Shown piece by piece: positions 6,680 to 55,000 of a stretch of 64,000 nucleotides of DNA; the stretch's first letter is position 1; every line of letters begins with the position of its first letter. The stretch is from assembly GCA_963674965.2 (NCBI GenBank), contig CAXXFL010000006.1, positions 512,001 to 576,000 of the forward strand, read 5' to 3'. The notes beneath the pieces are model-generated. The model was not told the origin of the DNA, did no database searches, and worked only from the letters and a program-made list of their open reading frames with translations. The DNA comes from a bacterium. Lineage in GTDB: Bacteria; RBG-13-61-14; DATKZS01. The position numbers and the translations under genes are program-made.

Positions 6680-6723
6680 TGCGTCCTCTCCCGCGTTGTA
6701 TTTGCAAAAATCAATTGGGAATA

Positions 6724-6741: not shown

Positions 6742-6980
6742 TAAAGGTAATAAATTGCTTTGGGCGGCGAATAAAATATCTTTACGCCAGGATATTATGA
6801 CATTATAACAATGGGTTATATAACATACGCATTCGATGGCCCGGCGGCGAAGATTGCAGGTTCGGTTTGTAAATATGAAGTAACAAAAATTGAAACGGAG
6901 CTATTTTTGCAACCGTTCCTTAAGGGTAACGGTTTCCCCGCGTTTCCCTATATGCTTGAGAGTACCGACTTCTAACCCTC

Positions 6981-7226: not shown

Positions 7227-7449
7227 CGCAACAAGTCACCGCCATTGCCATGAGAAACGCCCTGCCGGAATTTATCGCTGATTCGTCGGATAAACACATC
7301 TTCGCGAAATTCCTGCGGGAAAGAATAGATACAACAAGGGCTGAGGGATTACGTATGCTTGCCGTCAACGAATGAGTTGACGAGGAAAGGGGAAACGGTA
7401 CTCTCAAGAAAAGTAATTGCGCGTCATAATTGCTGAGCCCGCGGCCGCC

Positions 7450-7483
7450 GCCCAGGCAATATTGCAGACAACATTGCCTGGGC
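7450..7483 (-). terminator. Stem-loop downstream of lnt, possible terminator
   Basis: Perfect 11-bp inverted repeat GCCCAGGCAAT...ATTGCCTGGGC, 30 bp after the lnt stop; no clear U-tract. Confidence 0.4.
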
Positions 7484-7513
7484 AACCCCGCTGGAGGATT
7501 TGACAATCTGATT

Positions 7514-9082
7514 TCACCTGGGTCGTTTTGGAAGCTTTTTAATATCAACGATAAATGGCGCCGATATCGAAGACGCCGTCACAACCAGGCACAACCAACT
7601 GAAATAATGGCCAAAACGACTGTAAAAAGATTTCTCTTTAATAAATACGCCCTCGGCGACGATATGCCCGATTTCGCCGATTTCGGTCTCAGAAAGAATC
7701 CGGCCGTGGGCGTCGACCATTTGCGATACCCCCGAAGAAGCGACTCTGAAAAGCCATCGCCGGTTTTCAACCGCCCGCAGGGAACTCATGGCCGCGTGCT
7801 GCAAGTGTTGAGAGCGGCCCCAGATAAAAGCGTCCATGGTCGGGAAGATCAATATCTCGGCCCCATTCGAAACCAGCCCGCGGCTCACATAGGAATAATC
7901 CATGTCATAGCAGATCGCCACTCCGGCTTTGCCGAACTCCGTATTCACCACCGTGAAATCCTTGCCCGGCTCGCCGTCCATGAAAAATGGAATCGGGTTC
8001 ATCTTCACCGCCCGGCCGATTATCTCTCCCTTTCTCGAAAGAACGAAGGCGGTGTTCTTGAACGAATTGGCCTCATCTCCCGAATCCCTCCCGCCGAAGA
8101 TAAAATAAACGTCGTTTTCGGCCGCGAACTCAGTCAACCTATCCATCGGCTCGGGGTCTTTCTCCAGGATAAAAGGCGTCGAGTACTCGGGCCATACAAT
8201 AATATCGGCGCTGGAATCTCCGTTCTTAATCGCTTTCTCCGAAAGCTCGATCAACTCGTCATACCAGCCCGACTCGAACTGAACGCCGACAAATTTTACC
8301 GGCCGTCCCAAGTGGACCTTTTGTAACGACCAGACGCCATAGACGAACATAAGCGCAATCAGCAAGACGGAAAAAACATTCATCAAAAAAGGGCCGGGAA
8401 AATACGGATACTTTTTATCTTTTCGATCCAGCAGAAAATCCACGATTAAAGCAACGGAGGAATTCACGGAAAGCAGGGCGAATGAAATTCCATATACGCC
8501 GAACAGGTCGGCCGATTGAAGGATTGTCAGGCTCGCGTGTTGGGTGTAGCCCATGCCTAGCCAGGCGAATTTCAAAGTCCATAACTCGCTTCGGAAAAAC
8601 TCGACGCCCGTCCAGATAAAGGGAGCCAAAGCGGCGGCGGCCAAATTGCCAAACCGTTTTTTTAAGCTGGAAACGATAAAAGCGAACAGCGCGGTGAACG
8701 TCGCCAGGACCATGATCAGAAGAAATCCAAACGCTCCGAAGATGGTCATGAACCAGTAAAGACCTCCCGAATAAAAGACCAGCCCCCAGATGAACCCATA
8801 GGCCAGGCCCCAGCGCCGCTTGACGCGCGGTATCACGGCCAGCAAAGGGACCAGCGCGATCCAGGCCATCAAAGAAAAATCAAAAGGGGGAAAAGCCGCG
8901 ATAGCGAGCAGGCTGGAGGCGAGAGTCGCGACGAGGTATGGAAATTTAAACTTAGCTTCCAAATCAGGCACGTTATTTAGCTTCTCCGATTGAAAAAGGC
9001 CTCTCAGTACGATTGGCGTCAGAAGCGTCCAGCCCGCGGTCTTAGCCGCCCACGCAATAATGAAGACAAAATTGCGGGCCAC
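7514..9082 (-). CDS. lnt: Apolipoprotein N-acyltransferase
   Basis: AFPP, WTGVEFFR and LGMGYTQ membrane region; nitrilase domain IVWPE, K, ICYD and RAVENRRW. Start codon uncertain. Confidence 0.88.
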   Translation of the reverse strand: MARNFVFIIAWAAKTAGWTLLTPIVLRGLFQSEKLNNVPDLEAKFKFPYLVATLASSLLAIAAFPPFDFSLMAWIALVPLLAVIPRVKRRWGLAYGFIWGLVFYSGGLYWFMTIFGAFGFLLIMVLATFTALFAFIVSSLKKRFGNLAAAALAPFIWTGVEFFRSELWTLKFAWLGMGYTQHASLTILQSADLFGVYGISFALLSVNSSVALIVDFLLDRKDKKYPYFPGPFLMNVFSVLLIALMFVYGVWSLQKVHLGRPVKFVGVQFESGWYDELIELSEKAIKNGDSSADIIVWPEYSTPFILEKDPEPMDRLTEFAAENDVYFIFGGRDSGDEANSFKNTAFVLSRKGEIIGRAVKMNPIPFFMDGEPGKDFTVVNTEFGKAGVAICYDMDYSYVSRGLVSNGAEILIFPTMDAFIWGRSQHLQHAAMSSLRAVENRRWLFRVASSGVSQMVDAHGRILSETEIGEIGHIVAEGVFIKEKSFYSRFGHYFSWLCLVVTASSISAPFIVDIKKLPKRPR

Positions 9083-30074: not shown

Positions 30075-31064
30075 TTACTTCCAGGTGATCCTGGGAGTGC
30101 TCCTTTTCACCGGGCCGTCTATCTCGCCCTGGGGCCAGCCCAGGGCCACGCTGGTGGCTATGCGAAGGGGCCACGCTATCCCCAGTTCCTTCATCAACTT
30201 CCGGTCGGGCAGAGAGTTAAGGGCCGTGATAAAGCCGACGTAGCAGGTCCCCAAGCCCAGGCTATGGGCCGCCAGCACCAGGTTCTGGGCGCATATGCCC
30301 GCGTCGAGCTCGACCTGTCCTATGCCCCGCAGGTCCGACAGTATCACTATCACCACCGGCGCCCCGAAGAAAAGCGTATCGCGCTCGACCGCCGTGTCCA
30401 TGCCCGAGATGACCCGGACGTCCGCGTCGCCCGGCCGCCAGAGGCTGATGAGGTTCCACATGAGTCTCCTTGCCCTTCCCTGCTTCAGGTAGTTGCCCGA
30501 GGTCAGCTTGAGCCCCTTGAGGGAAGCCGTCTCGACGCGCCGTATAAGTTCCCGGTCCCGCAGCGCGAGGAACTCCCAGGACTGGCCGTTGCCCGAGCTG
30601 GGAGCGTAGCGGGCCGCCTCGATCACCCTGCGGATCAGTTCCTCGGGCACCTCCTTTTTCTTGAAGAGACGGTTCGAGCGGCGGCGGTAGATCACCCGCT
30701 CCACCGGCGTCAGTTCCTCCTCGATGGTCTCGAACGCGGGCGGGACCTCGGCGCCGAGCGGATTGGGCGGGGAGACAACGCCCCGGCTGAGGCTTTGGTA
30801 GCGGCCGGACGAGACGTAATAGTCGCCGCTCACCGAGGCCGCGCCCTCCTTGCAGACGGCCATGCAGTTGTTGCAGCCAAGACACGCGACCTCGAGGCCC
30901 TTGTAACCACGGATAACGGGCGGTCCCTCCTCGGGCATGTACAGGATGTGGGTGGGACAAGTCCTCACGCACCGGCCGCAGCGCGTGCATTTTTCCGGGT
31001 CCGCCCAGAACCGGGGAAACTCCGCCGGAGGATAATGGGCCTTGCCAATGTACTTGAGGTTCAT
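30075..31064 (-). CDS. Nitroreductase-family protein with N-terminal 4Fe-4S dicluster domain
   Basis: CTRCGRCVRTCP and CLGCNNCMAVC; RRRSNR, APSSGNGQ and AHSLGLGTC. Confidence 0.88.
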   Translation of the reverse strand: MNLKYIGKAHYPPAEFPRFWADPEKCTRCGRCVRTCPTHILYMPEEGPPVIRGYKGLEVACLGCNNCMAVCKEGAASVSGDYYVSSGRYQSLSRGVVSPPNPLGAEVPPAFETIEEELTPVERVIYRRRSNRLFKKKEVPEELIRRVIEAARYAPSSGNGQSWEFLALRDRELIRRVETASLKGLKLTSGNYLKQGRARRLMWNLISLWRPGDADVRVISGMDTAVERDTLFFGAPVVIVILSDLRGIGQVELDAGICAQNLVLAAHSLGLGTCYVGFITALNSLPDRKLMKELGIAWPLRIATSVALGWPQGEIDGPVKRSTPRITWK

Positions 31065-31257: not shown

Positions 31258-31602
31258 TTAATGGTATTCGTGCGTGCCCTGCTTCACCTCGATTCCGGTC
31301 TTGCCGCTTATGATCTGTGCCATCTCGTCGGCGTTCGAGTAAGGGCAGCCGGGTTTGGCCCCCACCAGGCAGCTTGACAGGCGTATCTCGTCCGGCTTGA
31401 TCTCCGAAAGCTTGATCGCCATCCCCACGTTGGGGGCCAGGCTGCGGCCGGGACATTCGCACTTGACGAAGCCGATCACCTGGACCGGCTCATCGAATTT
31501 GCCCTCCCCCAGGGCCGCCGCCTTCAGGCAACGCCACTCGCCCGGGCATCCATAGCCGCTGTCCATGTACGCTCCACATCCCACCACGAATACTTTTTTC
31601 AT
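31258..31602 (-). CDS. CGGC-domain (Cys-rich metal/Fe-S-binding) protein
   Basis: VGC...CPGEWRC...KCECPG...LSSC...CP...GTH pattern; AAGGAG RBS. Confidence 0.75.
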   Translation of the reverse strand: MKKVFVVGCGAYMDSGYGCPGEWRCLKAAALGEGKFDEPVQVIGFVKCECPGRSLAPNVGMAIKLSEIKPDEIRLSSCLVGAKPGCPYSNADEMAQIISGKTGIEVKQGTHEYH

Positions 31603-31713: not shown

Positions 31714-33066
31714 TCATTTTATTTTCTGAAGGGCCTGCTCGGCGGCGATGGTAATGGGCTCGGCGCTGGGCTCGGAGGAGCAGTCGGGATTTCCCGCGCA
31801 CATGAGCGTGGTCAGTTCCGGTATGGTTTTTCCTCCCAGGATCAGGGCGTTAATGGCGTCGATCTCCTTGGCCGGCGCCACGTCGTCGCTGATGATCTGT
31901 CCGCCGATAAGCTTTTGGCTTTTTTTATCGAACACCAGCTTGAGGGTCCAGGGCTTCTTGCCGGGGATCATGTTGTGCTTGCTCCGAGAGTCGACCGTCG
32001 CGCACACGGCATCGAAGTTCTCCTTTTGGGCGGCCTCCTCGCTTAGCCCCACGGCCGCGATGTACTTGTCGAAGAGCCTGACCGCCGTGGCCCCGAGCAA
32101 TCCCGGGAACGGTATCTCGTAACCCGCCAGCCGCTTGGCCGCCAGACGTCCCTGGATGACGGCCGGTCCGCGAAGCTGGATGGGCACGGGCTTTTTCGTG
32201 ACGAAATGGAAGTTCTCGATGCAGTCGCCGGCGGCGATCACGTCGGGGTCGGAGGTCTCGAGGAACTGGTTGACCTTGATCCCGAACCTGCCCATCTCGA
32301 GACCCATCCGCTCGGCCAACTCCAGGTTGGGCCTGGCCCCCACGTTCATGAAGACCATGTCCGCCTCCAGGCTTTGTCCCGAACCGAGTTCCACGCCGGC
32401 GACCATCCCGTCCTTGCCCAGGATTTTCGTCACCTTCTCGCCCATGCGGAAGGCGAGGCCCTTCTCCGTGAGGTAATCCTTCAGCCCGGCCCCCAACTCC
32501 GCGTCGAGCATAAGCGGGAGCGGATGACCGAGCAGCTCGATGATAGTTATCTCGTACTGGCCGGGAGCGTTCTCCATGAGGAGAGTGGCCTGCTCCATGC
32601 TGATGAAGCCCGCCCCGATGAACACCAGCCGCTTGGGTTTCTTTTCGGTCAGGAACTTCCTTATCCTCTCGGCGTCCTCGAGGGAGCGCAGGGTGAACAC
32701 GCCCTCCAGGTCGCAACCCTCAAGGGGGGGCACGAACGGCCTCGATCCTATCCCCAGCACCAGCTTGTCATAGGCAAGCTCTTTCCCGTCGCTGAAATGA
32801 AGTTTTTTAGCCTTGACGTCGACATTTTCCACCTTGGCAACGATCGAGTCAATGCGGTTGTCCGTGAACATCTTGTCCGGGTTGGTGATCGATTCTCCCG
32901 TGGCCAGACCGGCCACCACGTGGGGAAGCGCTCACCGCACAATGAAGGTTTTTTCCTCCCGGATCACCGTGACGTCCACGTCCGGCATCAGTTTCCTCGA
33001 GAGCATGGCGGCGGGACCGCCCACTCCGCCGCAGCCTAATATCACAAGTTTCTCTCCCTTTTTCAT
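31714..33066 (-). CDS. NADH oxidase/CoA-disulfide reductase-family flavoprotein, probable selenoprotein (Sec45), 450 aa
   Basis: ATG 33066 with AAGGAG RBS; FAD motif ILGCGGVGG; single in-frame TGA at 32932-32934 in FIVR-U-ALPH; frame continues into the 31714..32919 ORF (GAGFI, AAGDC, dimerisation domain). Confidence 0.85.
32892..32931 (-). promoter_or_regulatory. Bacterial SECIS-like hairpin
   Basis: Immediately 3' of the UGA: GCGCTTCCCCACGTG-GTGGCC-GGTCT-GGCCAC-GGGAGAA, a 6-bp perfect upper stem with a G-initiated loop 21 nt after the UGA. Confidence 0.75.
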
Positions 33067-33284
33067 GGGCCATCTCCTTTTTAATTGCTTTTACTTATGA
33101 ATAAGTATCATCTTTCCCACGTCATTGGCAACATATCCTTCCCCATAATCACGCGCCCTTTTGGCAAACGGGACTCCAAATATTATAAGGCGGATGACAA
33201 ACACCTTCTCCAGGGCTAAGGTAATAGCGCATCGGAAGCGTGAAAGCCTCAAGCCGGGTTTCAAGGAGAATTGTTTCAGTGAAA

Positions 33285-34163
33285 TCATGGCAGTGTGATC
33301 GCGTCCTCCGGGCAAACGTCAACGCAGGAGCCGCACGAAATACAATCGCGCCCGACCACGACGGCCTTGCCCTTGCTCAAGCTAATCGAGTTATTGGGAC
33401 AGACGTCAACGCAGGCCCCACATCCCGTGCAGAGTTCGCGGTCAACGACGGCCGCGGGGGAAGCGGACCCCATTCCTTCCAGTTGTTGAAGACGCCCCTT
33501 GATTTCATCCAATCGCCGCGCCAATACATCAACCTGCCCCTGGAGCATGGTCCTTTCGTCCATGGGAGCCGCGGCCGCCTCGGGCGTCGATTGAGTTGTA
33601 CCAGCGTTGGAAATTCCACCCATGCCTCCACCCATTCCCCGGCCCGTGCCCATCCCCATTCCGCGACCCATGCCCATGCCCCGGCCCATGCCCATGCCTC
33701 GGCCTCCGCCCATTCCGCGACCCATCCCCATTCCACGGCCCATACCCATTCCGCCGCCGGCCGCCGGCTGCGCCGCGCTCTGAGGATTTCCCGCTACCAT
33801 GCCCATGCCGAAATGGCCGGCAACGCTGGGTTGGCTCGCGGTGGAATAGGCCCCATTGCTGAAATTATGCACCGCCTCGCGGACGAGGCCTGAAACGCCA
33901 ACGACGACCTCGACGCCGGCGGCGGAAAGCGTCTGGTGAGCGTTGGGGCCGCAGTTCCCCGTAAGCACGTATTTCACTCCCTTTTCGGCCATTAGCTGAG
34001 CCGACTGGATACCGGCTCCGCTGGCGGAAGAAACGTTTGAGTTTTCCACCGCCTCGAAGCTCAAATCATCGGTATCCACGATCACGAAGAATGAGCATCG
34101 GCCGAACCGGGGATCTACCGGAGATTCCAAAGACCGCCCATTAGCGCTTACCGCGATTTTCAT
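33285..34163 (-). CDS. NifB/NifX-family (orange-protein-like) domain plus Gly/Met/Arg repeat plus 4Fe-4S ferredoxin
   Basis: MKIAVS...VDPRFGRC..F...GAGIQSAQ...TGNCGPNA; GMGMGRG repeats; CTGCGACVDVCP and CISCGSCVDVCP. Confidence 0.88.
   Translation of the reverse strand: MKIAVSANGRSLESPVDPRFGRCSFFVIVDTDDLSFEAVENSNVSSASGAGIQSAQLMAEKGVKYVLTGNCGPNAHQTLSAAGVEVVVGVSGLVREAVHNFSNGAYSTASQPSVAGHFGMGMVAGNPQSAAQPAAGGGMGMGRGMGMGRGMGGGRGMGMGRGMGMGRGMGMGTGRGMGGGMGGISNAGTTQSTPEAAAAPMDERTMLQGQVDVLARRLDEIKGRLQQLEGMGSASPAAVVDRELCTGCGACVDVCPNNSISLSKGKAVVVGRDCISCGSCVDVCPEDAITLP
33617..33757 (-). repeat. Coding low-complexity tandem repeat (GMGMGR-like)
   Basis: Repeated CCCATG/CCCATT units on the + strand encode GGGMGMGRGMGMGRGMGGGRGMGMGRGMGMGRGMGMGTGRGMGGGMGG. 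Confidence 0.85.
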
Positions 34164-34295: not shown

Positions 34296-34673
34296 TCAAC
34301 TTTCCCCGTTACCCCCTTGAATACGACGTCGGCGGCCGCAGCACCCGGGCATTAAAAAGGAGTCCTCCGAGAATCCGCCGCTTAAAAATACCCTGACCAC
34401 GTCATCAACCGGTCCGCAGGTGTGAGGAATTACTTGAACACCGGCGGACGAAAGCGCCATTTCCAAGGGCCAGGAAATTGCGCCGCATATGAGAACGTCA
34501 ACGCCAACTCCCGAGATTTCCCGGGCTCGCGAAAAAGGGTCCTGAAAGAACAATTTCTTCTCGACGCGGCCGGCCTCTTTCCCGCCTACCGCCTCTATCA
34601 CCAGCAATTTCCTTGCGACGTCCAAAACCGGAGAGACGCGCCTTTGCCAAATCGGAAGAGCAACCTTCATCAT
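34296..34673 (-). CDS. NifB/NifX-family molybdenum-iron cluster-binding-like protein
   Basis: MKVALP...RVSPVLDVA...VDVLICGAIS...MPGCCGRRRR. Confidence 0.8.
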   Translation of the reverse strand: MMKVALPIWQRRVSPVLDVARKLLVIEAVGGKEAGRVEKKLFFQDPFSRAREISGVGVDVLICGAISWPLEMALSSAGVQVIPHTCGPVDDVVRVFLSGGFSEDSFLMPGCCGRRRRIQGGNGES

Positions 34674-34683
34674 TTATTTATTT

Positions 34684-34701
34684 AGGCAATCAATGTGCCG
34701 A
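34684..34701 (-). promoter_or_regulatory. Sigma-54 -24/-12 promoter
   Basis: Minus strand CGGCACATTGATTGC gives GG-N10-GC; divergent from a sigma-54 activator gene. Confidence 0.8.
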
Positions 34702-34777
34702 CAATTATAAAATCCCCTAACTGGCCTTTTTCAAAGGATTATTCAAATTGAATAACGGCCATGCAATCATCCGGATA

Positions 34778-34824
34778 TTCGCAAAATGCGATTTATCCAT
34801 GTATTATCGGTTGCATTTTGCGAA
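34778..34824. promoter_or_regulatory. Paired candidate upstream activator sequences
   Basis: TTCGCAAAATGCGA (34778-34791) and TTGCATTTTGCGAA (34811-34824), inverted to each other, 80-125 bp from the sigma-54 site. Confidence 0.65.
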
Positions 34825-34846
34825 ATTAAGGCTAGCCTAAAAGGAT

Positions 34847-36217
34847 ATGAAAAAGACCCTGGACAAATCAAAACGCGAATGCCAGGACGTGATCCTGGAT
34901 TCTATCAATGAGGGGGTTTTTACCGTCGGCCTGGATTGGCGGATCAGTTCCTTTAATCGCGCCGCTGAAATCATCACGGGAGTAAGCCGGGAAAAAGCGG
35001 TGGGCCACGCTTGCTACGAGGTCTTTCGGACCAACATCTGCGAAGACTCCTGCGCGCTGAAAAAGACCATGTCCACCGGCGAGCCGATCGTTAACGCCAC
35101 CGCGCATATCGTGACCGAGTCCGGAATCCGCGTCCCCATCCGCGTCTCCACGGCCTTGTTGAAAGACGATCATGGAGTGGTGATCGGGGGCGTGGAGACG
35201 TTCCAGGATTTGACCCAGGTGGAACGGCTTCGAAAGGAACTGGAGGCCCGGTACACCTTCGAGGACGTCATCGGCCGGAGCCAGGCCATGACCGAGCTTT
35301 TCCAGATTCTCCCGCAAATCGCCGAAAGCGATTCCACGGTATTGATCGAGGGAGGCTCAGGCACGGGCAAGGAGTTGTTCGCTCGCGCTCTTCACAACTT
35401 GTCTCCTCGCAAAAAAAAGCGCTTCGTGCCCGTGAATTGCGCGGCCCTTCCCGATACTCTTCTGGAGTCCGAGCTTTTCGGATACAAAGCCGGGGCCTTT
35501 ACCGACGCGAAAAAAGACAAGCCCGGCCGTTTCGCCCTGGCCGATGGGGGCACGATATTTCTTGATGAAATCGGGGACGTCTCACCCGCCATGCAGGCCC
35601 GGCTGCTGAGGGTACTCCAGGACCAGAAGATTGAGCCTTTAGGCTCGGTCGAGCCAATCCAGGTGAACGCTCGAGTGGTGTGCGCCACCAACAAGGACTT
35701 GACCAGGCTCGCCCGATCGGGCAAGTTCAGGGAGGACCTTTATTATCGGGTCCGGGTTATCCATCTCAAGCTGCCTTGCCTTAAGCGGCGCCGGGAGGAT
35801 ATTCCCCTCTTGGTGGACCACCTGATCGGCAAGTTCAACCTGCTCCAGGACAAAGATATAGCCGGGGTTTCGGGAGCGGTCATGGCCCGACTGATGGAGC
35901 ACGATTTCCCGGGTAACGTGCGTGAACTCGAGAACGTCATCGAGCGAGCCTTCGCTCTCTGCCGGGGAAACATGATCGAAATGCATCATCTGCCCGCGGA
36001 CCTCCGGCCTGATGAAGTCAAAATGGGAGAGCACGGTTCCGCCACCACGCTCGATTCCATGGAAAAGATAATGATCACCGAGGCGCTCAGGCGCTGCCAG
36101 GGCAATAAAAAACAGGCCGCCCGGGAACTCGGCGTTAACGCCAGCACGATATACCGCAAGATCAAAGCCCTGGGAATCGAGCCTCCCGAACGCCGACGAG
36201 AGACCCTCAAAAAATAA
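34847..36217 (+). CDS. PAS-domain sigma-54-dependent transcriptional activator (OrpR-like)
   Basis: PAS domain with C..VFRTNICEDSC; GGSGTGKE, ESELFG..AGAFTDA, FLDEIG, FREDLYYR and PGNVRELEN; Fis-type HTH. Confidence 0.92.
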   Translation: MKKTLDKSKRECQDVILDSINEGVFTVGLDWRISSFNRAAEIITGVSREKAVGHACYEVFRTNICEDSCALKKTMSTGEPIVNATAHIVTESGIRVPIRVSTALLKDDHGVVIGGVETFQDLTQVERLRKELEARYTFEDVIGRSQAMTELFQILPQIAESDSTVLIEGGSGTGKELFARALHNLSPRKKKRFVPVNCAALPDTLLESELFGYKAGAFTDAKKDKPGRFALADGGTIFLDEIGDVSPAMQARLLRVLQDQKIEPLGSVEPIQVNARVVCATNKDLTRLARSGKFREDLYYRVRVIHLKLPCLKRRREDIPLLVDHLIGKFNLLQDKDIAGVSGAVMARLMEHDFPGNVRELENVIERAFALCRGNMIEMHHLPADLRPDEVKMGEHGSATTLDSMEKIMITEALRRCQGNKKQAARELGVNASTIYRKIKALGIEPPERRRETLKK

Positions 36218-43023: not shown

Positions 43024-46000
43024 TTACTGGGCCACTATCGTGACTATCCTGTCTTCGGTGATGGCGGCACAATATCTTCCAAGTCCTCCGCTCCCGCACT
43101 CGGGGGTCGAGGCCTTGAGGTAAATGGTACCGGCGGCCGTGGCGCGAAGCACAATGGTGGACCGTCCGCCAGAGGCTATGGCGCCGGAGATATCGTAACG
43201 TCCCGAGCCGGAGTCGCCCTCCCCTCCCAGAATTACCGCCGAGCCCGTAGAGCCGGCGCCGTCAATCTCGAATACCACGCCAAAGCCGGCCGTGTAGTTG
43301 GGATAATCGTTCTTTACGCCAATGGTGACCCGAACGGTCGAGCCCACGTCGACGTTAACGATTGAGTCTCCCACCAGCTCGAGGGAAGTGGGTCTTCCAG
43401 GCACGGAAGAAACGCTCTGCAGGGAGGCCATCTGTCTAAGGAGAGAGAGGTCCAGGGACGAGACGATCTCGTCCATGTCCAACTCCTGGGTGTCGCCGTT
43501 CGGTGGAATAACTCCCGTATAGGAAACCGAACTCAGGGCTATCCTGGACTTGAGCGTATTTACGTCGAGGGGGGACAGGAGGCCGTCGGCGGAGGTCGTG
43601 TTGCCGGAATCGGTCCAGTAGAAACACCCCGGCCCGCCGGTCACGTTCTCGTCCCACAGGTCCGTGTCGTTGTAGTACTCATGGCAGTTGGGGTTCCCGT
43701 CCGCGTCGAAGTCGGCCGAGCATCCGTCCGAGTCGTCAAGCGGATTCAAGTTGTTCGAGTGACCCGAGGAATTGGCAACCTCGAAGGGGTCGGGCAGATG
43801 GTCGCCGTCCGTGTCCCAGGCGGTTGATCCGGTCCCGTAGGTCACCGTCTCCTCGTAGTCGTCGAGTCCGTCGTCGTCGGAGTCGTCGTCGCAGGGACTG
43901 CTCTCGGTCGAGTCCACCACTCCGTCGGCGTTTAGGTCCTCGCCCTTGGCGCAAAGAACGGTGTCACCGTCCATTACCGAGGTGTTGCCGTCACAAAGGC
44001 CGTCATCGTCCGAGTCGTAGTCCTCCGAGTCGAGACATCCAACGCCGTCCTCGACCGAGTCCTCGATGCCGTCGCCGTCCGTGTCGACCCCACCCACCGG
44101 CGTCATGCTGAAGTCGTGCCTGGTCGTCTCGCCGTCGGAAACCTCGAGGTCCTCGACCAGGTAGGTCTCATAGCCGTCAAGCGCGGCGAAAATGTAATGG
44201 TTGCTCGCCTGCACCAGGCGGATGGAGAACTCGCCCTTGTGGTCGGTCGAGGCGGATTTGCCCGAAATCTCGAGGCTGAGGCCGCCCAGGGGATCGCCGT
44301 GCTCGTCCGTGACCTTGCCCAGCAGGACTCCCGTGCTGGCGAAGGGCGAGAGCACCACGTTCTTGGTCGAGGTCGAGTTCTCGTTAATGACGGGACAAAG
44401 CTCGGTCTTGCTCGAGTAGTTGGTGGCGCTGTAGCTGCACAGGTATCCGCTGCCCGAGGGCACGGTGCCGTTTATGTAGTATTGGCCGCCGCCGCTGGTA
44501 TAGACGATGGTCCCGGTGGTGGGCATCTGCCAGATCACCTGGACCCTGGCGCCCTGGACCCCGAACCCGGTGGCCAGGTCCGTGACCTTGCCGTTAAGGG
44601 AGCCGAAGGTCCCGGACTCCTGGTCCACGTAGAGGCTGTAGGAGGTCCCGGCTCCGTAGCCGCTCAGGCTGTGCCGAACCATGGCGTAATAGGTGGCCCC
44701 GTCCGCCACGAAATAGATATAGGACTCGGACTCGTGGAAGTCGTCGTTAAAATCGACCAGGTCGAGGGTCGAGCCGTTCAGCTTGTAAAGCTCCATGTAG
44801 GTGTCGCAGTTCTCGCCCAGGTTGCCCGTGTAAACCACGTAGGGGTTGCCCTCGTTGCCGTAAAACACGATCCAGTCCTCATCCACGTCGGAGTGGAAGT
44901 TATGGAGCTGGCCGGTGCTCGAGCCCACGGTGATCGAGCTGGCCTGGGTCTCGTCGTTGTCCGGCTCGTAGGCGTCCATGCCCCTCAGCGTGATGTAGGT
45001 AGTGGCCGGGTCGCTCAGGTTGCCCGCGCTGTCCTTGGCGTAAACGGTGACCGTGTAGTCGCCGTTGATGGTGAAGATGTTGTCCGACTGGGTCTGGGTG
45101 AACACGTGCTCGTAGCGGTCGTCGCCGTCGGGATCGGTCAAGTGCACGATCGGTATCAGGTCGTCCTCTATCTTGGGCGTCTCGAAGCTCTCGTCGATGG
45201 TGGGGGCCTCGTATCCTGGAGGCGTGATGACGGCGTAAACGCCGGCGATGTCGTTGAAATTCATCACGTCCACCCAGATGGTGGCGGTGTCGCCCGAGTC
45301 GATCTCGACCGAGGGGCTGGCCTGCAGGTCGGGCGTCTCGTCTCCGGTGAAGAACTCGGACCCGAGGTACTTGCCCTCCGAGTAGGCCCCGTCCCGGTCG
45401 GCCCCGGAGGCCACGTAAACGCCGTCGCCGTTGTCGTCCAGCCGCGGCGACTGTCCCGACCATCCCTTGATGGCGGCCGCCGCCAGGTTGAAGGAACTCT
45501 TGATGTCCTGGCCGGCCATGACGTTATTGAGGAAGAACTGGCTGAAGCTGACCGTGCCGTTGACCGTGAAGAAGGCCGGGCTGGTGGCCGAGGCGCTCGA
45601 GATAACGATCCGGTCGGCCGAGCCCGAGCCCAGGTTGTCGATGAAGCTGCCCGAGTAGCAGGCGTCGTAAATGACGTTGACCCGGCAGGGATGGGACGTC
45701 TGAATATCGTCCAGCCACCCGTCCAGGCTGTCGGCGGAAAGCACCACCGGAGTGACCGTTTCGCCCACCACTATCCTGTCCACCAGGAAGCTGTCCACCC
45801 CGCCGTGGTCCAGGAGGTACACGGTAAGAGGAACGTCAGGATCGCTGGACACGGGAGAAGTGGGACCGTTGAACCAATGGCCGTCAACCGTCCCGCCCTC
45901 GGCCGCGGCCCAGCCGGTGATGGCGTACCTCATATTGTCCAGGCTGGGCAGGGCGTCCACGTCGTTGTAGTAGCCGTCGCCGTTGCCGTCGAAGGTCTGG

Positions 46001-49000
46001 GTCTTGTTCGGGTTCATGTAGAATATCTTGTCCGGCGTGAAGCCCCTCGAGATGAGGGTCTTGTACGCGAAGTTGGCCAGGTAGTTGATGTTGTTGACCA
46101 GGCGGTTGTCGTCCAAAAGGCCGCCGCCCGCCACGATCACCGCTCTGCCCACGTCCTCGGTGATGGTGATCTTGGCGCTCACCACGTCCGCGGGAGTGGA
46201 TGAATCGAGCACCGAGATGGTGTACTCGCCGTAAATCGATCCCGCCTGGAACATGAAGGTGTCGCCGTCGCCGATCGAAATCATGCCGCCCAGGGCGTAC
46301 CACTCGTAGGGAGCGGTCCCGCCCACGACCCTGAACTCCTGCGTCTCGCCCGGGGCCAGGCCCACGGCCTGCGGCTGTATCTGGAACACCAGCTTGGTCA
46401 GCTTCACGTCGGCCGCGAAGCTCACGCCCCTGGTGTCCACCACGGCGACCAGGTAAGAACCCGGATCGGGTCCGGGCGCGTAATGAAGGGTCGTTCCCTC
46501 CACGACGGCCGTCCCGCCCGTATAGGACCAATCGTAGGGAGGTATGCCGCCGGTGACCTTGAAGTCCACCGTGTCGCCGTTGGTGGGTACCTCGACCACG
46601 GACGGCGTGATAACAACCAGTCCCGGCTTGTCGATGGTGAAGACCAGGTTGCGGTCCAGGGCCCGCCCGGTCGAGGCCACGTCGTCGGCCAAGATGGACA
46701 GGCTGTGGGTGCCGAGTTTGGAGCCGGCCTTGACCTCGACCAGGTGGTCGTCAAGGCCCTGTTGGGTAAGGTCGATGGTCACGGTGTTGCCGGTCCAAAC
46801 CTCGTTGTAATCGACGCCCAGTGCCAGGACGTCCTCGTCGAGGGCCAGGACCGGGTAAGCGGGAGTATCTATTCCCGAGGTCTTATCGTACAGGACCACC
46901 TGCACGGTGATAGTGTCGCTGAGGATCACGTCCCCATCGTAAGGCGATGCGCTTATCAGTTGGGGACCGACAATGTCCATCTTGCTAACGTCCGAGGAGA
47001 CGGGAGAGGCGGAAACTCCGCCCTGGTTGACGGCGATGACCGTGGCCACCACCGAGTCGCCGTCGGAAAGGAGAAGACCCTGCGCCGTGACCTGGCAGTA
47101 GCCCACCGTGCAGGAGTAGCCGACTCCCGTGTAGCCTAGGTACTCGGTCCCGCCCGGCGCGGCGCCGATGGCGTAGAGGTAGCCGACCTCGGAGTCGGGG
47201 TCGGTGGCCTCGTCCCATCCGATCCAAAGGGTGCTTCCCTCGCTGAGCCAGTAGCTCTCGAGCATGACCGACATGCCGTCGATTACCGGAGGTGAAACGT
47301 CGATAAAGGTCGAGCAGTCGGGTATAGCCGGTGATTCCTCCACGTTGCCCGCGCGGTCCACCGCGATGGTGGAAAACTCGTAAGTCCCGTTGGCGGTCGA
47401 GCCGAACAGGAAAGAGCCCGAGGAGCCCGAGTCGGTGGAGCCGAAAAGCGTCATCTCTCCTCCGTCATGGCTATACCACAGACTGACCTCGGCGCAGTCC
47501 TCGTCGGCCGTCCAGGTGACGGGGAAGGCCACGTCGCCGCCGTAAGGAGGGCTCGAGGCCGAGGACGACGGGTCGGTCCAGTCCACGATGGTGGTGGCCT
47601 CAGCCGAGCTCTTGGGCGGCTCGACGTGTATGGGCGAGAAGAAGCCTCGCGTATAGAACCGGTACGTGCCTTCTCCGTATTGCGGCACGTACTGGAATTC
47701 TCCAAATTCCTGCCTGGCCGTGTAGCCCGAATTCTGGAACAAAGACCCGTTCCAGCTCACGTATAGAGTGACCAGCGAGGTGGGCTCGGTGGTGTTGGCG
47801 AATATGACCCAGACCGTGTTGCCGTTCTCATAGGGCTCGGATGAGCAGATCGTGACGGGGTCGCCGTTGGCCGTGAACATGTCCGAGCCGTATGTGTACT
47901 CGTCGCCGTCGTTTCGGCCGTCGTCGTCCATGTCCGGGTCCAGGGGGTCGGATAAAACCGGATAATTGACTTCAACGTAGTCGCTAAGGCCGTCGCCGTC
48001 CGTGTCAACCTGGTTCGGGTCGGTGCCGTAAGTAATGATTTCCTCGCCGTCCCATAGCCCGTCGCCGTCCGTGTCAGGGTCGTTCGGGTCCGTGCCGTAG
48101 GCGGCCTCCGCCGCGTCGGGCAGGTAGTCGCCGTCGTTGTCGAAACCGACCTGGTCGAACATTATGCCGTCCAGCGTGTTGCCGACCACGAACCAGGCCA
48201 CGCCGTATACCGATCCCGTCCACTCGATGGATGGATAATAGGCGTTAGCGGAATCTCCCGAGATGGAGATGGGATAGCCCATCTGGAAGCCGCCCACGTG
48301 GACTCGGGACAAGAATATCATGTCGCGTCCGGAGTCGCTCTCCCATTGGAAATAGGCGATCCCGAACTCGTGATTCCCGGCCGTTATGTCCGCGTCGCCG
48401 CAGTTGTAACTATACCCCTCTGACACGGTGAACGGCGTCTCAAGGGTGTCGCCGTCGGCCGAAATTCCGACGAATTGGACGTTACACCACATGTAATCGA
48501 TGTATTTGAAGGCCAGCCCAAAAAGGCCATCGTCGTGCCAGGCTAGGGACGGCTCTCCATGGTATGAAAACATCGCGGAATGAGTAATTTGTTGGCCGAG
48601 CGACAAGACGTTGCCAGCGTCGTCGATCCTTGTGAAATAAATCTCGACCGTAGACCCTTCTCCAGGCATGTCCCACTCGTAAGCCACGCCGAACTCACTT
48701 CCGCTCCATGCGATCGTCGGCGAGTGGGCCCCACCGTAGGGGGCGCTGGAGGTAAGCTGCACTCCCGGCATTAAGGTGTCGCCGTTTTGATCGAGCCTGG
48801 TGAAGAACAACTCCTCGTTCCCGTCGGCCAACCAGTTTATATAGACCGCGCCGTACTCCGATCCGGTCCAGGCGACGTCGGGGTAGGTCTCTAAATCCAT
48901 GGCGTCGTTGGCAAAGGGCTTCTCGGGCCCGGCCGTGTCGCCATACTGGTCAATCTGAATGAAATAGGAGTCATCGCCTCCTCTTTCCCATACCAGGGCA

Positions 49001-52000
49001 AACTCCGAGCTTCCCCAGGTCAATTTCGGGTTGACGTCGTCCATGATATGCGAGGTGATGGTGGTCCCGCCCAGCACGGTGTCGCCGAACTCGTTGATCC
49101 GGGCGAAAATAATATTGTAGTCATAGAGGGCGTCCATCTCGGTCCAGGCCACTCCGTACTGGGAGCCGGTCCAGGCCAGCGTCGGGGCCCAGGCGTCGGT
49201 AGCGGTGTCTCCCGAGGAAACCAACAGCCGCTTGCCGAAGGGCGCGAAGCCCGCGTCGTCATAAGGGTCCTCGGGGTCGCGGCCGCCCGCTATCTCGCTT
49301 CCGTCAAGCTCGCCGCCCATGTCCGTGTCGGGCGAGAGCGGGTTGGTAAAGTATCCGTACACGTGCATGACTTCCTCGAAGTCAGTAAGGTCGTCGTGGT
49401 CCGTGTCCTCGTCGGTCGGGTCGGTCTCCGAGTTGTAGACCTCGAAGCCGTCGCCAAGGCTGTCGTCGTCAGTGTCCCAGTCGTTGGGATCGGTCCCGTT
49501 AAGATACTCGTTCAGGTTGCTAAGGCCGTCGTAATCAGGGTCTCCCGAGGCGTCGTATAAATTCGGATTGAGCCCGTTCTCGACCTCCCAGCCGTCGGGC
49601 ATGTCGTCGCCGTCCGTGTCCCAGTTAATGGGATTGGTCATGGTGTCGTAAAGTTCCTGGTAGTCGGTCAGCCCGTCCGCGTCCGTGTCGGGGTCGCAGG
49701 GATCGAGTTGGGGCCGGTTCGTAAACTCGAACCAGTTGGTCAGGGTGTCCCCGTCCGCGTCGAGCATGTTGTCCACCGTGTTTATCATCAAACAGCCGTA
49801 CATGTACTCGTAGCCGTCGGGCATTCCGTCCGCGTCCGTGTCCTCGTAGACGCACGGATTGTGGCCGTTCTGGTACTCGAAGAGGTTGGTGTAATAGTCG
49901 TAATCAGCGTCCAGGTCGGAGTCGAAATAATTGGGATCTATGTAACAGGACGACCCGACCATCACCTCCCAGCCGTCGTCCATGCCGTCGTCGTCCGTGT
50001 CCCAGTCATAGGGGTCGGTCTCGTAGTCGTTTATCTCCTCCGCGTCCGTCAGCCCGTCGCCGTCGGTGTCGGCGTTGGTCCCTCCCATGCCGACGCGGGC
50101 GAACCATATCTCGTCCTCAATCCTGCCGTCCCTCCAGGCCACGCCGTACTCGGAGCCGTTCCAGTCCAGGGACGGGGCTTGGGACGTATCCACGTCGTCC
50201 TCGCTCACCTGTATGGGCGCGCACAGAGTCGATCCCGCGAGGTCGAGCTCGATGAAGAAAATCTCCTTGTAAGTTGTAGGCCGGAACTCGTAGGCCAGTC
50301 CGAACGCGGAGTGGCCATAAACCAGGTCGGGCATGGTGGGTTCATATAAACCGCCGCTATAGGTGATCCTTAAATTGGGGCCGATGGTGTCTCCGTCCGC
50401 TCCGACGCGAGTGAAGAATATCTCTCCGTACCAGTCACGATAATCCTCCCAGGCCGCGGCGTACTCATCGCCGGTCCAGACGAGTTTCGGGTTCTCGGGG
50501 CATTGCGTGGTGGCCCCCCCGCTGAGACTTATCTGAGGGCCGATGGTGTCGCCGTCCGCCGCCAGACGCGCGAACTTGACGTCCAAGGCCCCCCAATCCT
50601 CCCAGGCCAAGCCGAACTCCCCGTCGGCCCAGACAAGGGAAGGAGCTTGCGCGTCTCCGGAGGAATTGGAAACGATCCTTACGCCGTCCACGGTGTCTCC
50701 GTTAACGGCCACCCTCTGGAACAATACCTCCGTGTTCGCTCCTAACCGATATTTCTGGTAGGCCACGCCGTACTCGGACCCGGTCCAGGCGATGGAGGGA
50801 TAGCCGATGGATTCGATCGTCAACTCGGAGATGGCGGCCGGGCTTATTATGGTCGAGCCGTCCACGCCCACGCGGGTGAAATAGATCGAGTCCTGGGAAG
50901 CCGAATATTTCCAGCTCACGCCGAATTCAGACCCGGTCCACACGGCGTCCGTATGCGCTTGGGTGTCGTTCTCCAATTTCAGTCGAACGTCGGGGCCCAG
51001 GGTGTCCCCGAACATGTCGAGACGCTCGAAAAACACGTTTAAGTCGCTATCGCCTCGATTGTCCTCCCAGAACAGGCCGTACTCCGTGCCCCTCCAAAGC
51101 AGGGTCGGGTTAATGGCGTAGGCGCCGGCGTAGGTCACGCGCACCTCGTCCCCAATCCTTCCCATGTCGCCGGGATAGGGGGTGATGTCCGGGTCGAGCG
51201 GGTTGGACCCGTTTAATATCTCGATCCCGTCGTCCACGCCGTCGCCGTCGGTGTCGTTATCATAGGGGTCGGTGCCCGCGTTGCTGGGGCCGTTATACAC
51301 GCCCGTGTCGGTCTCGACCGCGTCGGGAGCGGAGTCGGAGTCGCCGTCGTCGTTCCAGACCATGGGGTCGGTCAGCCAGAAATAGACTTCCTTGCCGTCG
51401 TCGAACCCGTCGTCGTCGGAATCAATATCGTCCGGATAGGTGAGGTAAAGGTTCACCTCGTCGCCGTCGGTCACGCTGTCGCCGTCGGTGTCGCTCACGC
51501 AGGGAAGGGCGTCGTTCAGGAACTCATCGATATTACTTAGGCCGTCAAAGTCGTAATCCCAGGTAGCGTCGTAGTATGTGGGGTCGAGTCCGCAGATGGA
51601 TCCGTAATTTACCTCCCAGCCGTCCTCCATGCCGTCGCCGTCGCTGTCCTCGTCGCAGGGGTTGGTTCCCGACGCCAACTCGTAAATATTGCCGAGCCCG
51701 TCCGTGTCCCCGTCAAGCAGGGAATCACCCACCGTCGGATCGAGGCCGCAATACATGTAGAGATATTCCCAGTCGTCCCCCATGCCGTCCCCGTCGCTGT
51801 CCTCTTCGCAGGGGTTCGTGCCCAGCATGTATTCCTGCATGTTGGTCAGGGAATCCTCGTCTCCGTTGCTTGCCGAGTCGCCGACCATGGCGTTCACGCA
51901 GCCGTACATGGACTCCCAATGGTCGTCCATGCCGTCGCCGTCCGTGTCCGCCATAGTGTAATCGGTGCCGGCCAAGTCCTCGAGGAAGTCGCTTAGGCTG

Positions 52001-55000
52001 TCGCCGTCAGTGTCCAGGGTCATGTTGAAGCGGCCGTAATAGATATCGCCGCCGTCCCAGTCGTTGCCGGACCATACCACGTGCAAGTCCCCCTCGGGAC
52101 CGAAGGAACACTTGGGGTCGGCCGCGGAATTGCCGGCCAACACCGAGTACCATTCCTCGCCGACCAGGAAGCCAAGGTATAAGTTATCGGAAGAGTTGGT
52201 CCAGGCCAGGGCCACCAGGCCGTCGGACTGACGGGCCGCGGCGTGAGCCTCGTAACCCCCGAAAATATCTTGGCCGTATTGCCAACCCGCCGCGGTTTTC
52301 TTTCCCATCCGGATATAGGCGCTATTGAGCCAGAAAAGGTAAACGCCGTCGCCGGAGGTCACGGCCGATGGGATGTGATACGTGCTGGTGTAGCCGCCAT
52401 ATATCTGTTGCTGGTACTCCCAGCCCTCGCCTGGAGAATAATCGGAGACGTATATCTCACCGTCGTCCGTTCCCTCGTACCAGTAGACGCTGAGGGAGGA
52501 ACCGTCGAGGCCCAGGCCGGGCCGATACGAGTAATATCCGGGGTACGAAATACGATACTCCGCCGTGGTGTTTCCGCCGCTCTCGATGGTGAAGTGGTAA
52601 ACGTCGGATAGATCACTGTCTCCCCGCTGGTAAACCAGCTCGATGGTGTCTCCCATGGCCATGGCCTGAGGCCAATATTCCTCCTCGCTAGTGGCCTTGG
52701 CCGTTACCGGCCCGCTCCAGCTTCCGCCATTCCAGAAGGAATGGGCTATGTCCGAGCTGTAACCGTAGAGGGTGTCCTCGAAGAAGACGTGGACCACGCC
52801 CGAGGCGTCTATGACCACCTCAGGATGGCGGTTATCGTCTCCGGACGAGACGGTAAGAGGAGTGGCCCATCCCGTCGAGCCGTCCTTGATATTATGCACG
52901 ATGAAGTCCGGTCCCGTGCCGCCCCACTGCTCCCAGACCACGTTGATATCACCCGCGTCGTCGATGGCCAGGTCCGGCCTCGAGTTTCCAGCGGCCGTGT
53001 CCGAAATGATTACCACCGGGTAAACCAGGGGCACGTCGTCCAGCGGGTTGAGCGGATCGCGGCCCGCGTCGACCTCCCTCTTGTCGTCCTCGCCCCCGCC
53101 GTCGGTGTCAACGGCGCAGGGGTCGGTCGAGTTGCCGTATTCCTCGAGGTTGGAAAGGAGGTCGCCGTCGGGATCGCCCAGGGAGTCGCCCCATCCCACC
53201 ATCAGGCCGCAGCTGCCGCCGGCCAGTATCTCGAAGCCGTCGCTCATGCCGTCGCCGTCGGTGTCCCAATTGTCGGGATCGGCCCCCGCCGGTATCTCCT
53301 GCGAAGCCAAAAGTCCGTCGCCGTCGGCGTCAAGTGCGATACGCGAGAATTGCAGCGTCTCATGCGTGCTTCCGTACTCCTGCTGGACCCAGACCATGGC
53401 GTACTCGCTGCCGGTCCAGAGGACGCCCTGCTTGGAGGAACTGAGGTAATCGTCATCCATGCTGTTGGTCAATCTGGATTCTTTGAGGCTTACATTGCCT
53501 TTATCGTCGAGCAGGCCGCAGTAGATTTCGTAGTTTCCGTCCCTGTCGTCCTGCCATACCACCAGGTATTCCCCATCATCCTCGTTCCAGGCTATATCCG
53601 GGCTTACGCTTTCGTTACCATCCGAGGTCAGGATGCTCTCGGGTCCCAGGGTGTCTCCATCGCTTTCCATCCTTTGGAAAAGTATGGTGGAGTCGTTGGA
53701 ACTCCAGGCCATTCCCAGCGCGTCTCCCGCCCATTCCAAGGCGGGGGCCGAGGCGTTGACGGAGTTGTAGGTAATTCTGTTTTCATAGGTCACGGTGGCG
53801 CCGCTTGTAATGCCGGCCGCGTATACCTGGTAAATGGCGTCTCTGTTGTCGTACCAGGCCGCGGTGTATTCGCTTCCGGTCCAGACGAAATCGGGCAGAT
53901 ACTGCCGGTTGGTATCGGTCGTTACCTGCAGCTCGGAGGACGCGAAGCCTCCAAGGTTGGTAAGCCTTCTGAAATATATGTCCGGCATGCCGCCTCGCCA
54001 GTCCTCCCAGGCCAGTCCGTAACCGTTTTGGTCCCATACCAGTTTTGGGTTGCCTCGGTTTAGGGTCGAGTTGGTTATCCTTCTGTCGGACCCCATGGGC
54101 ATGCCGGTGGGAGAGATGCGGTTGAAAATTATTTCGTAGTTGCCATAAACGTTCGACTGCCACGCCAGGCCGAATAGCCAGTTCGATTCATTCCAGGCAA
54201 TGGAGCAGTTCCGGGCGACGCCCGTGCCGCCGGTTATCTGGACGACCGGGTCCACGCTCGAGCCATAATAGGTGAGAGGCACATAATAGATATCGTAGAT
54301 TGTTGAATACCCCTCGTACCAGCATACGCCCAGACCCGAGTCGTAATCCGCCATGGCCGGCCTGCCCACGCCGCTGGAGGAACCCCTCACCACCCTGGCC
54401 GAGCCCGCCATCTTGACGCTGGAGGCTATCTTCGAATCGTGGGGATTGGAGCCCCTGATCACCTCGAAGCCGTCAAGCACGCCGTCGTCGTCCGTGTCCG
54501 GATCGTTGGGATCGGTGCCCGTGTTGGTGGTTCCCGCGTAAACGCCCGTGTTCGTCTCGACCTGATCGGGCAACCCGTCCGAGTCCGTGTCGCCGTCGGG
54601 CGTGGAAGGGGAAGTGCCCCAAAGGTAAATTTCATCGTAGTCGGAAAAGCCGTCGCCGTCCGTGTCCGGGTCGCACGGGTCGGTCGAGTTGCCGTACTCG
54701 ATTATATTGGTCACGCTGTCGCCGTCGGCGTCGAGGAGTGAGTCAACGGCCAACGGGTCGAGCCCGCAGGAGGAATAGGAGTGTTCCCAGCCGTCCTCCA
54801 TGCCGTCGCTGTCCGTGTCGTCCGAACCGGGATGAGTCCCGAGAAAGTATTCCACGCGGTTAATGAGGCCGTCCGTGTCCCCGTCAAGGATGGCGTCGGA
54901 CGAGTCTCCCGCGCTGAAACCGTAAAAGGTTTCCCAGGTATTCGGTATGCCGTCGAAGTCGCCGTCCCAGAAGGCCGAGTCGGGACCGCCGGTAAAGCCC

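Follow-up and report, generated by a model that had tools for sequence, protein, structure and literature searches.

The subject of this analysis is a gene for a flavoprotein with a predicted selenocysteine (Sec) residue on a bacterial DNA stretch of 64,000 nucleotides (the window: positions 512,001 to 576,000 of contig CAXXFL010000006.1, assembly GCA_963674965.2, GTDB lineage Bacteria; RBG-13-61-14; DATKZS01), whose numbering is used below. The gene occupies 31714–33066 on the minus strand and runs from ATG 33066 to the terminal TGA 31716–31714 (450 residues), with an in-frame UGA at codon 45 (32932–32934, minus strand), which aligns with the catalytic cysteine of the family and is read here as Sec. 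By direct reading of the sequence a Shine-Dalgarno-like AAAGGAG (33074–33080, minus strand) is found 7 nt 5′ of the ATG. A mechanical list of open reading frames (ORFs) gives 31714–32919 (minus strand, 401 residues) instead, starting at a GTG (32917–32919, minus strand; Val50 of the complete protein), which is the false start used by gene callers. Upstream of 32919 the frame is open to ATG 33066, the TGA at 32934–32932 being the sole interruption (context FIVR-U-ALPH), and the 44 codons before it encode the flavin adenine dinucleotide (FAD) motif GCGGVGG; a GAGFIS motif follows further along the read-through protein. The initial annotation, made from the letters of the window, had described the ORF without its FAD-binding N-terminus, the extension in the same frame to an ATG with a good ribosome-binding site, the single TGA and a hairpin (GTGGCC-GGTCT-GGCCAC) 3′ of it, and all of these are present as described, the hairpin at 32916–32900.

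Because the 401-residue ORF is devoid of the FAD-binding N-terminus, it is considered to be a gene-calling artefact, and a very common one. A protein database search yielded 1414 hits at E ≤ 1e-50, of which the best 120 were examined. Of these, 104 have at most 410 residues, cover 85–90% of the query and start at Val or Ala directly past the UGA; some stem from NCBI entries labelled merely "FAD-dependent oxidoreductase." The remaining 16 are full length and all have Cys at the column in question (FIVR-C-[SA]-LPY). Taken at face value, the 104 entries would favor the view that the real product is the 401-residue protein from GTG 32919, the upstream 44 codons being untranslated or coding for a separate small peptide. 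Such a protein, however, would have neither the GxGxxG FAD-binding beta-alpha-beta unit nor the catalytic residue, although the Pfam domain Pyr_redox_2 begins at residue 6 of the read-through protein; the full-length Cys-type relatives cover 100% of the latter, and ATG 33066 is preceded by a good ribosome-binding site. A genuine 401-residue product is thus extremely unlikely, and the truncated entries are uniform because gene callers cannot read UGA. The expectation that annotation pipelines would call the gene truncated is borne out by these same 104 entries, and since they are all truncated alike, the claim of a hidden selenoprotein holds for the whole clade and not just for the genome of the window.

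The UGA codon and its hairpin

An in-frame stop codon is by default the sign of a broken gene, and the TGA could have arisen by nonsense mutation, from an error in sequencing or assembly, or through decay of the gene into a pseudogene. However, when 60 relatives were searched in six frames, an ortholog (75–81% identity) was found in all four genomes of the same family, each with exactly one TGA, which is at the same column; six genomes of the same order and two of the same class contained only paralog-level matches to this query (best identities 30–37%). A wider search of a species-level genome collection gave 122 stretches with a relative, the best 80 of which were kept (loci with the prefix L). 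In these loci from other genomes the codon at the column is TGA in 73, TGC or TGT in 4, and unscorable in 3 (L086, L126 and L128, in which the motif pattern is unmatched, L128 being partial and starting at residue 144); these three are left unscored in all Sec/Cys counts. The TGA is therefore conserved in 73 of the 77 scorable loci, and the 44 codons before it are open and conserved as well, FAD motif included. In addition, contigs assembled separately from two Logan runs are identical to the window over 32700–33200 (word depths 20 and 15); the two runs share a single sample, which is probably that of the assembly itself, and, not being independent of it, they do no more than exclude a slip in assembly as the origin of the TGA. 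An error, a strain-specific nonsense mutation or a decaying gene is on these grounds vanishingly improbable.

A search for selA, selB, selC and selD, proposed in the initial annotation, revealed the complete set in the genome of the window, which is 97.6% complete. The genes for SelA, SelB and tRNA-Sec (558, 378 and 69.5 bits) are adjacent on contig 4, and selD (361 bits) has an in-frame TGA of its own (context S-G-U-A-A-K); all four components score above the curated cut-offs. The selD gene (G000:C1:1052858-1053775; locus L008, TGA at locus position 1528–1530) has a short G-rich hairpin candidate 3′ of its UGA.

Read-through of UGA without Sec is known from some bacteria, and codon 45 could in principle stand for Cys, Trp or Gly, decoded by a near-cognate tRNA or under an altered genetic code. 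A changed code is unlikely because the C-termini of the Sec and the Cys forms coincide and the codon at this position is TGA in the window, so that the terminal TGA acts as a stop codon. Against reading by another tRNA stand the complete set of selA, selB, selC and selD and the finding that a covarying hairpin with a G-containing loop follows this UGA only, which is the hallmark of a bacterial selenocysteine insertion sequence (SECIS) as characterized in the excerpt of PMC1088965. Insertion of a residue other than Sec is therefore considered to be very unlikely.

The SECIS-type hairpin (32900–32916, minus strand) has a stem of 6 bp (GUGGCC/GGCCAC) and the apical loop GGUCU (32910–32906), which is 21 nt from the UGA; the usual spacing in bacterial SECIS elements is 16–37 nt. 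These elements are described, in the part of PMC1088965 drawn on here, as stem-loops shortly 3′ of the UGA whose small apical loop contains G, which agrees with the 6-bp stem and the GGUCU loop of the window. Two observations speak against a functional hairpin. The fold of the single sequence is only weakly above chance (z = −1.79, 12 of 200 shuffles equal), as might be expected of a pseudogene, and at the gathering score no Rfam family was found in the whole window. For this reason it is the comparative tests that carry the case for the hairpin.

For these tests 72 distinct Sec-type sequences were aligned over 66 nt without gaps. The consensus from RNAalifold is exactly the 6-bp hairpin and nothing else. 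Pairing is found in 98.1% of the 432 cells of the stem, as compared to 16–51% when the 3′ arm is slid by 1–3 columns; all six pairs are kept in 64 of the 72 sequences and five of the six in the other 8. Four of the six pairs show changes on both sides (G-C to A-U or C-G, U-A to C-G, C-G to A-U), and none of 500 shuffles reaches any of the five hairpin measures. The four Cys-type loci, by comparison, keep only 3, 4, 5, and 5 of the six pairs. The apical loop is GGTCT in 61 sequences, GGTCA in 6, GGGCT in 3, and GGTGT in 2, and the SECIS of the clade is thus unusually uniform. Wobble positions within the hairpin are near-invariant (commonest base in 67, 71, 69, 71, and 61 of 72 sequences), whereas in the four codons before and the three after the hairpin the commonest base is found in at most 52 of 72 sequences, or in at most 35 at those positions at which all four bases are seen. 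These frozen wobble positions are a constraint at the RNA level on top of that of the coding sequence. An extended lower stem, which had been predicted from the window alone, is not kept in the alignment, where RNAalifold retains the 6-bp hairpin only. The proposal of a SECIS-like hairpin with a G in its loop thus finds support in covariation, consensus fold and wobble constraint.

From the sequence comparisons we estimate the probability that the UGA at codon 45 is decoded as Sec, which would replace the catalytic Cys, at about 90%. During translation, SelB carrying Sec-tRNA(Sec) would bind to the hairpin 21 nt past the UGA, so that the codon would be decoded rather than lead to termination; the final TGA, which has no such hairpin, would terminate normally.

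The flavoprotein and its clade

Pfam recognizes in the read-through protein the domains Pyr_redox_2 (1.3e-52, residues 6–286), Pyr_redox (4.1e-11, residues 146–227), and Pyr_redox_dim (9.5e-11, residues 332–431), the three domains of pyridine-nucleotide:disulfide oxidoreductases, which together span residues 6–431. The protein has the FAD-binding GxGxxG N-terminus, the second, NAD(P)H-binding Rossmann unit and the C-terminal dimerization domain of the group that comprises NADH oxidases (Nox), NADH peroxidases (Npx), and CoA-disulfide reductases (CoADR). Among its solved relatives in the PDB (E 4.4e-60 to 1e-33, near full length), the best are NADH oxidases and reductases of CoA disulfide or CoA persulfide. 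The order of domains is the same as in NoxA-3 (6pfz), the NADH oxidase from Thermus (6ruz), CoADRs (3icr, 4fx9, 1yqz), CoA-persulfide reductase (8a56), and NADH peroxidase (1joa), and the redox residue is in the same x-C-x-[LI]-P-[YH] context. The difference is that the window protein has Sec where these single-cysteine enzymes have Cys. For example, in the alignments with 6pfz, 6ruz, and 3iwa, residue 45 is matched by the Cys of R-C-G-L-P-Y, A-C-G-L-P-Y, and G-C-G-I-P-Y, this Cys being the single redox-active cysteine of the Nox/CoADR family. The motif x-C-x-[LI]-P near residues 42–45 is thus present in the window protein as R-U-A-L-P-H, with Sec filling the position of Cys. The alignment to homologs suggested in the initial annotation therefore agrees with its idea that Sec takes the place of the catalytic Cys: codon 45 falls on the Cys of Nox and CoADR structures, and Cys is also found at this column in 16 of the 16 full-length relatives. 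Judged by its sequence, the gene product clearly belongs to the FAD- and NAD(P)H-dependent pyridine-nucleotide:disulfide oxidoreductases of the Nox/Npx/CoADR group.

The mature enzyme would accordingly be an FAD-dependent NAD(P)H oxidoreductase of about 450 residues with U45 as single redox-active residue. Electrons would flow from NAD(P)H via FAD to a selenenic acid, or to a selenenyl-sulfide formed with the substrate or with a nearby Cys.

Candidates for such a nearby Cys are found at the C-terminus. The solved relatives have a C-terminal L-[AS]-Y-A-P-P-[YF]-S, instead of which the window protein has M-C-A-G-N-P-D-C-S, with C423 or C429 as a possible second redox residue; for the C-terminal loop of the clade the candidate cysteines are C423/C425/C429. 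A form S-A-C-N-P-D-I-S, with Cys on the position of the Tyr, is present in 32 other Sec loci (T-S-A-C in 26, close variants in 6), and of the 70 Sec loci with a readable C-terminal segment, 68 have at least one Cys in it. The tyrosine of Y-A-P-P-[YF]-S presumably lines the active site of the partner subunit in CoADR. A Cys of the C-terminal loop might accordingly meet Sec45 across the dimer, as inferred from this role of the CoADR tyrosine. In addition, a His is found four residues past Sec (U-[AS]-L-P-H) in 73 of 73 Sec forms; at this position Tyr is present both in the four Cys-type loci and in the 16 full-length proteins with Cys.

In a quick maximum-likelihood tree of 90 rows, 14 Cys forms fall into one clade (support 100) and a further Cys form, P0030, stands by itself. 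The clade and P0030 alike branch from within the Sec forms, which gives three label changes in total. This suggests a replacement of Sec by Cys within the clade, with the reservation that the root and the direction of the change are unsafe because the tree is a quick one with a single outgroup (L050) on a very long branch (10 in the summary, 5.94 in the tree). The carriers of the Sec form are mostly Thermodesulfobacteriota (Desulfobacterales, Desulfobulbales, Desulfohalobiaceae, and Syntrophobacterales), so that the clade extends over sulfate reducers and related anaerobes. Two of the genomes are complete and come from cultured Desulfosarcina, and Sec-type orthologs are present in D. alkanivorans and D. 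widdelii (L101 and L108). Individual metagenome-assembled genomes among the carriers are labelled Fibrobacteraceae and Dehalococcoidia, and Acidobacteriota are among the Cys forms. The gene is present in all four genomes of its own family, its nearest relatives elsewhere being labelled Thermodesulfobacteriota, and this patchy spread would fit horizontal transfer.

Selenoproteins of this kind have been predicted before, as the initial annotation already stated. Earlier selenoprotein tables contain a family named "NADH oxidase," with entries from Geobacter metallireducens (PMC1794560) and from the Olavius algarvensis delta1 symbiont (PMC1976440), and "FAD-dependent oxidoreductase, CoADR" is likewise on a selenoprotein list (PMC9312934), each according to the excerpt of the source. 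As far as these excerpts go, the published family and the gene of the window agree in superfamily, name, COG, and taxon range, a likeness of description and not of sequence; both are from anaerobes of the deltaproteobacterial type and both were predicted from an in-frame UGA plus a bacterial SECIS. Since the family is already listed, the gene of the window is a new example of a known selenoprotein family. The lists of 2006–2007, however, give in the parts at hand one "NADH oxidase" sequence per data set (PMC1794560, PMC1976440), whereas here Sec is the majority state of a large clade, with 73 of 77 scorable loci. The papers that were searched seem to report neither the scale of this Sec-dominant clade nor the switch between His and Tyr, the C-terminal loop with its Cys, or the connection to a locus of the orange protein (ORP) type described below.

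The ORP-like gene neighborhood

In the window the gene is part of a minus-strand cluster in the order Di-Nase-like ORF, Di-Nase/DUF5320/4Fe-4S fusion, Sec-flavoprotein, CGGC protein, ferredoxin-nitroreductase, and acyl-CoA dehydrogenase. The first gene (34296–34673, minus strand, 125 residues) has a weak Pfam match to Nitro_FeMo-Co (4.6e-05; 24.1 bits, which misses the cut-off of 26.3). The second (33285–34163, minus strand) codes for a fusion in which Pfam finds Nitro_FeMo-Co ("Di-Nase," orange-protein-type), DUF5320 and two 4Fe-4S ferredoxin motifs. Downstream of the flavoprotein gene follow the gene for a CGGC-domain protein of 114 residues (31258–31602, minus strand; PF08821, 4.6e-20) and then that for a protein with a ferredoxin domain and a nitroreductase-family domain (30075–31064, minus strand; Pfam). 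Divergently to the cluster, a sigma-54 activator of 456 residues is encoded on the plus strand (34847–36217), whose PAS domain contains C56-x8-C65-x3-C69 and E58 and whose AAA+ domain contains a GAFTDA loop, as seen from Pfam and from the sequence. A strong, near-consensus sigma-54-type motif, CGGCAC-N5-TTGC (34686–34700, minus strand), is located 5′ of ATG 34673, and a weaker −24/−12 motif, TGGAGT-N5-TTGC (33164–33178, minus strand), 112 nt 5′ of ATG 33066; both are consensus matches only. A scan for terminators was no better than with shuffled sequences (6 found, 6.2 expected) and gave nothing between 33285 and 33066. The divergent promoter region (34674–34846) also contains, at 34778–34824, a perfect 12-nt inverted repeat, TTCGCAAAATGC / GCATTTTGCGAA (arms 34778–34789 and 34813–34824, 23 nt between them), which is a candidate binding site of the activator; its core resembles the center of the published OrpR site. 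At some distance from the cluster there is a giant ORF of 4306 codons (43024–55944, minus strand) with small Pfam matches only (CarboxypepD_reg, bacterial TSP3 repeat, Big_13), probably a huge surface or adhesin-like protein.

The activator resembles OrpR, the [4Fe-4S] redox sensor of the orp operons of Desulfovibrio, which is characterized by C52/C61/C65 and D/E54 and turns its operons off as the redox potential rises, as stated in passages of PMC8359166. The spacing of the Cys triad and the acidic residue at +2 are the same in the activator of the window, and so is the GAFTDA loop, which is reported for DVU2106 in an excerpt of PMC4641369. With an OrpR-type activator over an ORP-like cluster, expression at low redox potential is therefore predicted. 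Compared with what these sources give for the ORP locus of Desulfovibrio vulgaris Hildenborough, the window shares the divergent sigma-54 activator (PAS C-x8-C-x3-C, acidic residue at +2, GAFTDA), sigma-54 promoter motifs and Di-Nase (Nitro_FeMo-Co) proteins. The closest relative, L058 (81% identity), has a cluster in the order OrpR-like activator, Sec-flavoprotein, CGGC protein, two Di-Nase proteins, DUF5320, a further Di-Nase, two MinD/ferredoxin ATPases, and TauE. Measured against the composition of the complex as given in the part of PMC6345978 used here, this is a full ORP-type set, and the two ATPases resemble Orp3 and Orp4 of D. vulgaris. The domains that are fused in the 33285–34163 protein of the window are encoded by separate genes in L058, followed by the two MinD/ferredoxin ATPase genes that are missing from the window.

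How far the connection holds in the clade was asked by tblastn with nine queries in about 5 kb around the gene in the 80 loci. At least one ORP-type component is present in 32 of them (activator in 17, Di-Nase in 13, CGGC in 10, ATPase in 6, DUF5320 in 5), and the OrpR Cys triad in only 5 of the 17 activators near the gene. The ferredoxin-nitroreductase gene was not found by tblastn near the flavoprotein gene in the 80 loci. A TGG-N8-TTGC motif occurs within 300 nt upstream of the gene in 11 of 76 stretches; the reverse complement has 1, and 200 shuffles have 1.3 on average and 5 at most. The initial annotation saw the novelty mainly in the gene context, which is right insofar as the locus is recognizably ORP-like and of the OrpR/sigma-54 type, but is limited by the fact that such components lie near the gene in only 32 of the 80 related loci.

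Other genes were found beside the flavoprotein gene when the nearest crude ORF on each side was assigned by Pfam in 77 loci (144 proteins; the genes were picked by ourselves and some of the ORFs are spurious). An ArsP_2 permease precedes the gene in six loci (L071, L072, L075–L078), in four of which an OYE/Pyr_redox enzyme follows it. DUF1638 is a neighbor in three loci, DsrE/DrsE_2 in four, rubrerythrin in three (L096, L109, and L116), NifU in two, and thioredoxin (L099) and Hsp33 (L082) in one each. A cut-off AhpC/TSA ORF is downstream in three loci (L059, L117, and L119), two of them also with DsrE. In L059 (1929–2687, plus strand) this ORF has a TGA at the peroxidatic position (F-T-F-V-U-A-T-E), which would therefore make it a Sec-peroxiredoxin gene beside the Sec-flavoprotein gene, two selenoprotein genes in tandem; the ORFs of L117 (1807–2061) and L119 (2103–2393) are cut off in the same way, and the DsrE/DrsE_2 gene is usually upstream. 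In the acidobacterial locus L089 a second member of the family is fused to a rhodanese (6677–8329, plus strand; persulfide-reductase-like) and located 3′ of the Cys-type ortholog; genes for a MinD/ferredoxin ATPase and a Di-Nase are upstream.

Possible function

What the enzyme reduces can be narrowed down only in part. Its scores miss the cut-offs of the NCBIfam equivalogs both for CoADR (TIGR03385, 256.4 versus 578.8 bits; NF007123, 218.5 versus 458; NF010037, 149.4 versus 394) and for the H2O-forming NADH oxidase (NF046103, 166.7 versus 600), and for this reason neither "NADH oxidase" nor "CoADR" is established as its activity. A low-molecular-weight disulfide, persulfide or polysulfide, as with CoADR and persulfide reductase, would fit the ORP and DsrE contexts and comes closest to being probable, although it stays somewhat short of an even chance. 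A peroxide, O2 or a peroxiredoxin, which would fit the peroxiredoxin, rubrerythrin, and thioredoxin contexts, is a possible substrate with rather less weight, and something else is fairly unlikely.

The boldest interpretation is that the clade is not an oxygen-defense "NADH oxidase" but an NAD(P)H-driven selenol reductase working for the metal-sulfur ORP complex of anaerobes, where it would bring sulfane sulfur (persulfide or polysulfide) to the Mo-Cu-S and Fe-S clusters or take it away from them. The gene would be expressed at low redox potential only, under the control of an OrpR-type Fe-S sensor, and the enzyme might have a two-residue center, composed of Sec45 and a Cys in the C-terminal loop of the other subunit, which would be new for this single-cysteine family. 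As a whole this interpretation is improbable. Several findings weigh against the ORP context as a general guide to the function of the gene. The published 17-bp OrpR palindrome has no match with up to three mismatches in the window, and an ATPase of the Orp3/Orp4/Orp9 type was not found there by tblastn (ferredoxin-motif matches only), in both of which the window differs from the D. vulgaris locus as described in the excerpted sources. With the queries used, 48 of the 80 loci have no ORP-type component at all. The pairing with a Sec-peroxiredoxin in other clades points to a different role, and the context varies widely across the family. The link to ORP may be confined to certain clades. The five-protein ORP complex of Desulfovibrio, in the parts of PMC8359166, PMC6345978, and PMC4641369 used here, is described without a flavoprotein disulfide reductase being named, and the term "disulfide reductase" is absent from the full text of these three papers, the locus-defining paper of 2011 being outside this search.

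Alternatively, the enzyme could be an NADH oxidase or peroxidase that detoxifies O2 or H2O2, or a peroxiredoxin reductase, its ORP-like location being incidental. The top solved relatives (6pfz, 6ruz) are indeed named NADH oxidases, rubrerythrin, thioredoxin, and Hsp33 are immediate neighbors in the five loci given above, a Sec-peroxiredoxin gene would be next to the gene in L059, with the same cut-off AhpC/TSA ORF in L117 and L119, and the 48 loci without an ORP-type neighbor are what would then be expected. It should be noted, however, that an operon that is turned off at a raised redox potential, as stated for OrpR in the passages of PMC8359166, would be wrongly regulated for oxygen defense if the activator of the window is alike. 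ORP-type components are also found in several separate clades, Cys-type acidobacterial loci included (L084, L089), and DsrE-type sulfur carriers and a rhodanese-fused paralog are among the neighbors. A role in detoxification is therefore a serious but tentative option. Because the context is mixed, with sulfur and metal-cluster themes in some clades and peroxide-defense themes in others, it does not point to one particular physiological role.

The hidden selenoprotein gene itself is real and well supported, ordinary in kind, and gives a modest, testable lead to a function. The annotation error is widespread and easily corrected, and should be thought of when database entries are used, because any conclusion drawn from the truncated entries rests on a broken protein without its FAD-binding N-terminus and its catalytic residue. 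Since Sec is in the majority (73 loci versus 4 with Cys) and the Cys forms are provisionally nested among the Sec forms, the clade is useful for asking why Sec is kept. The recurrence of ORP components and of an OrpR-type regulator beside the gene provides a testable link to a complex of unsolved role, and a selenol reductase serving this complex, if it were true, would be the first enzymatic handle on it.

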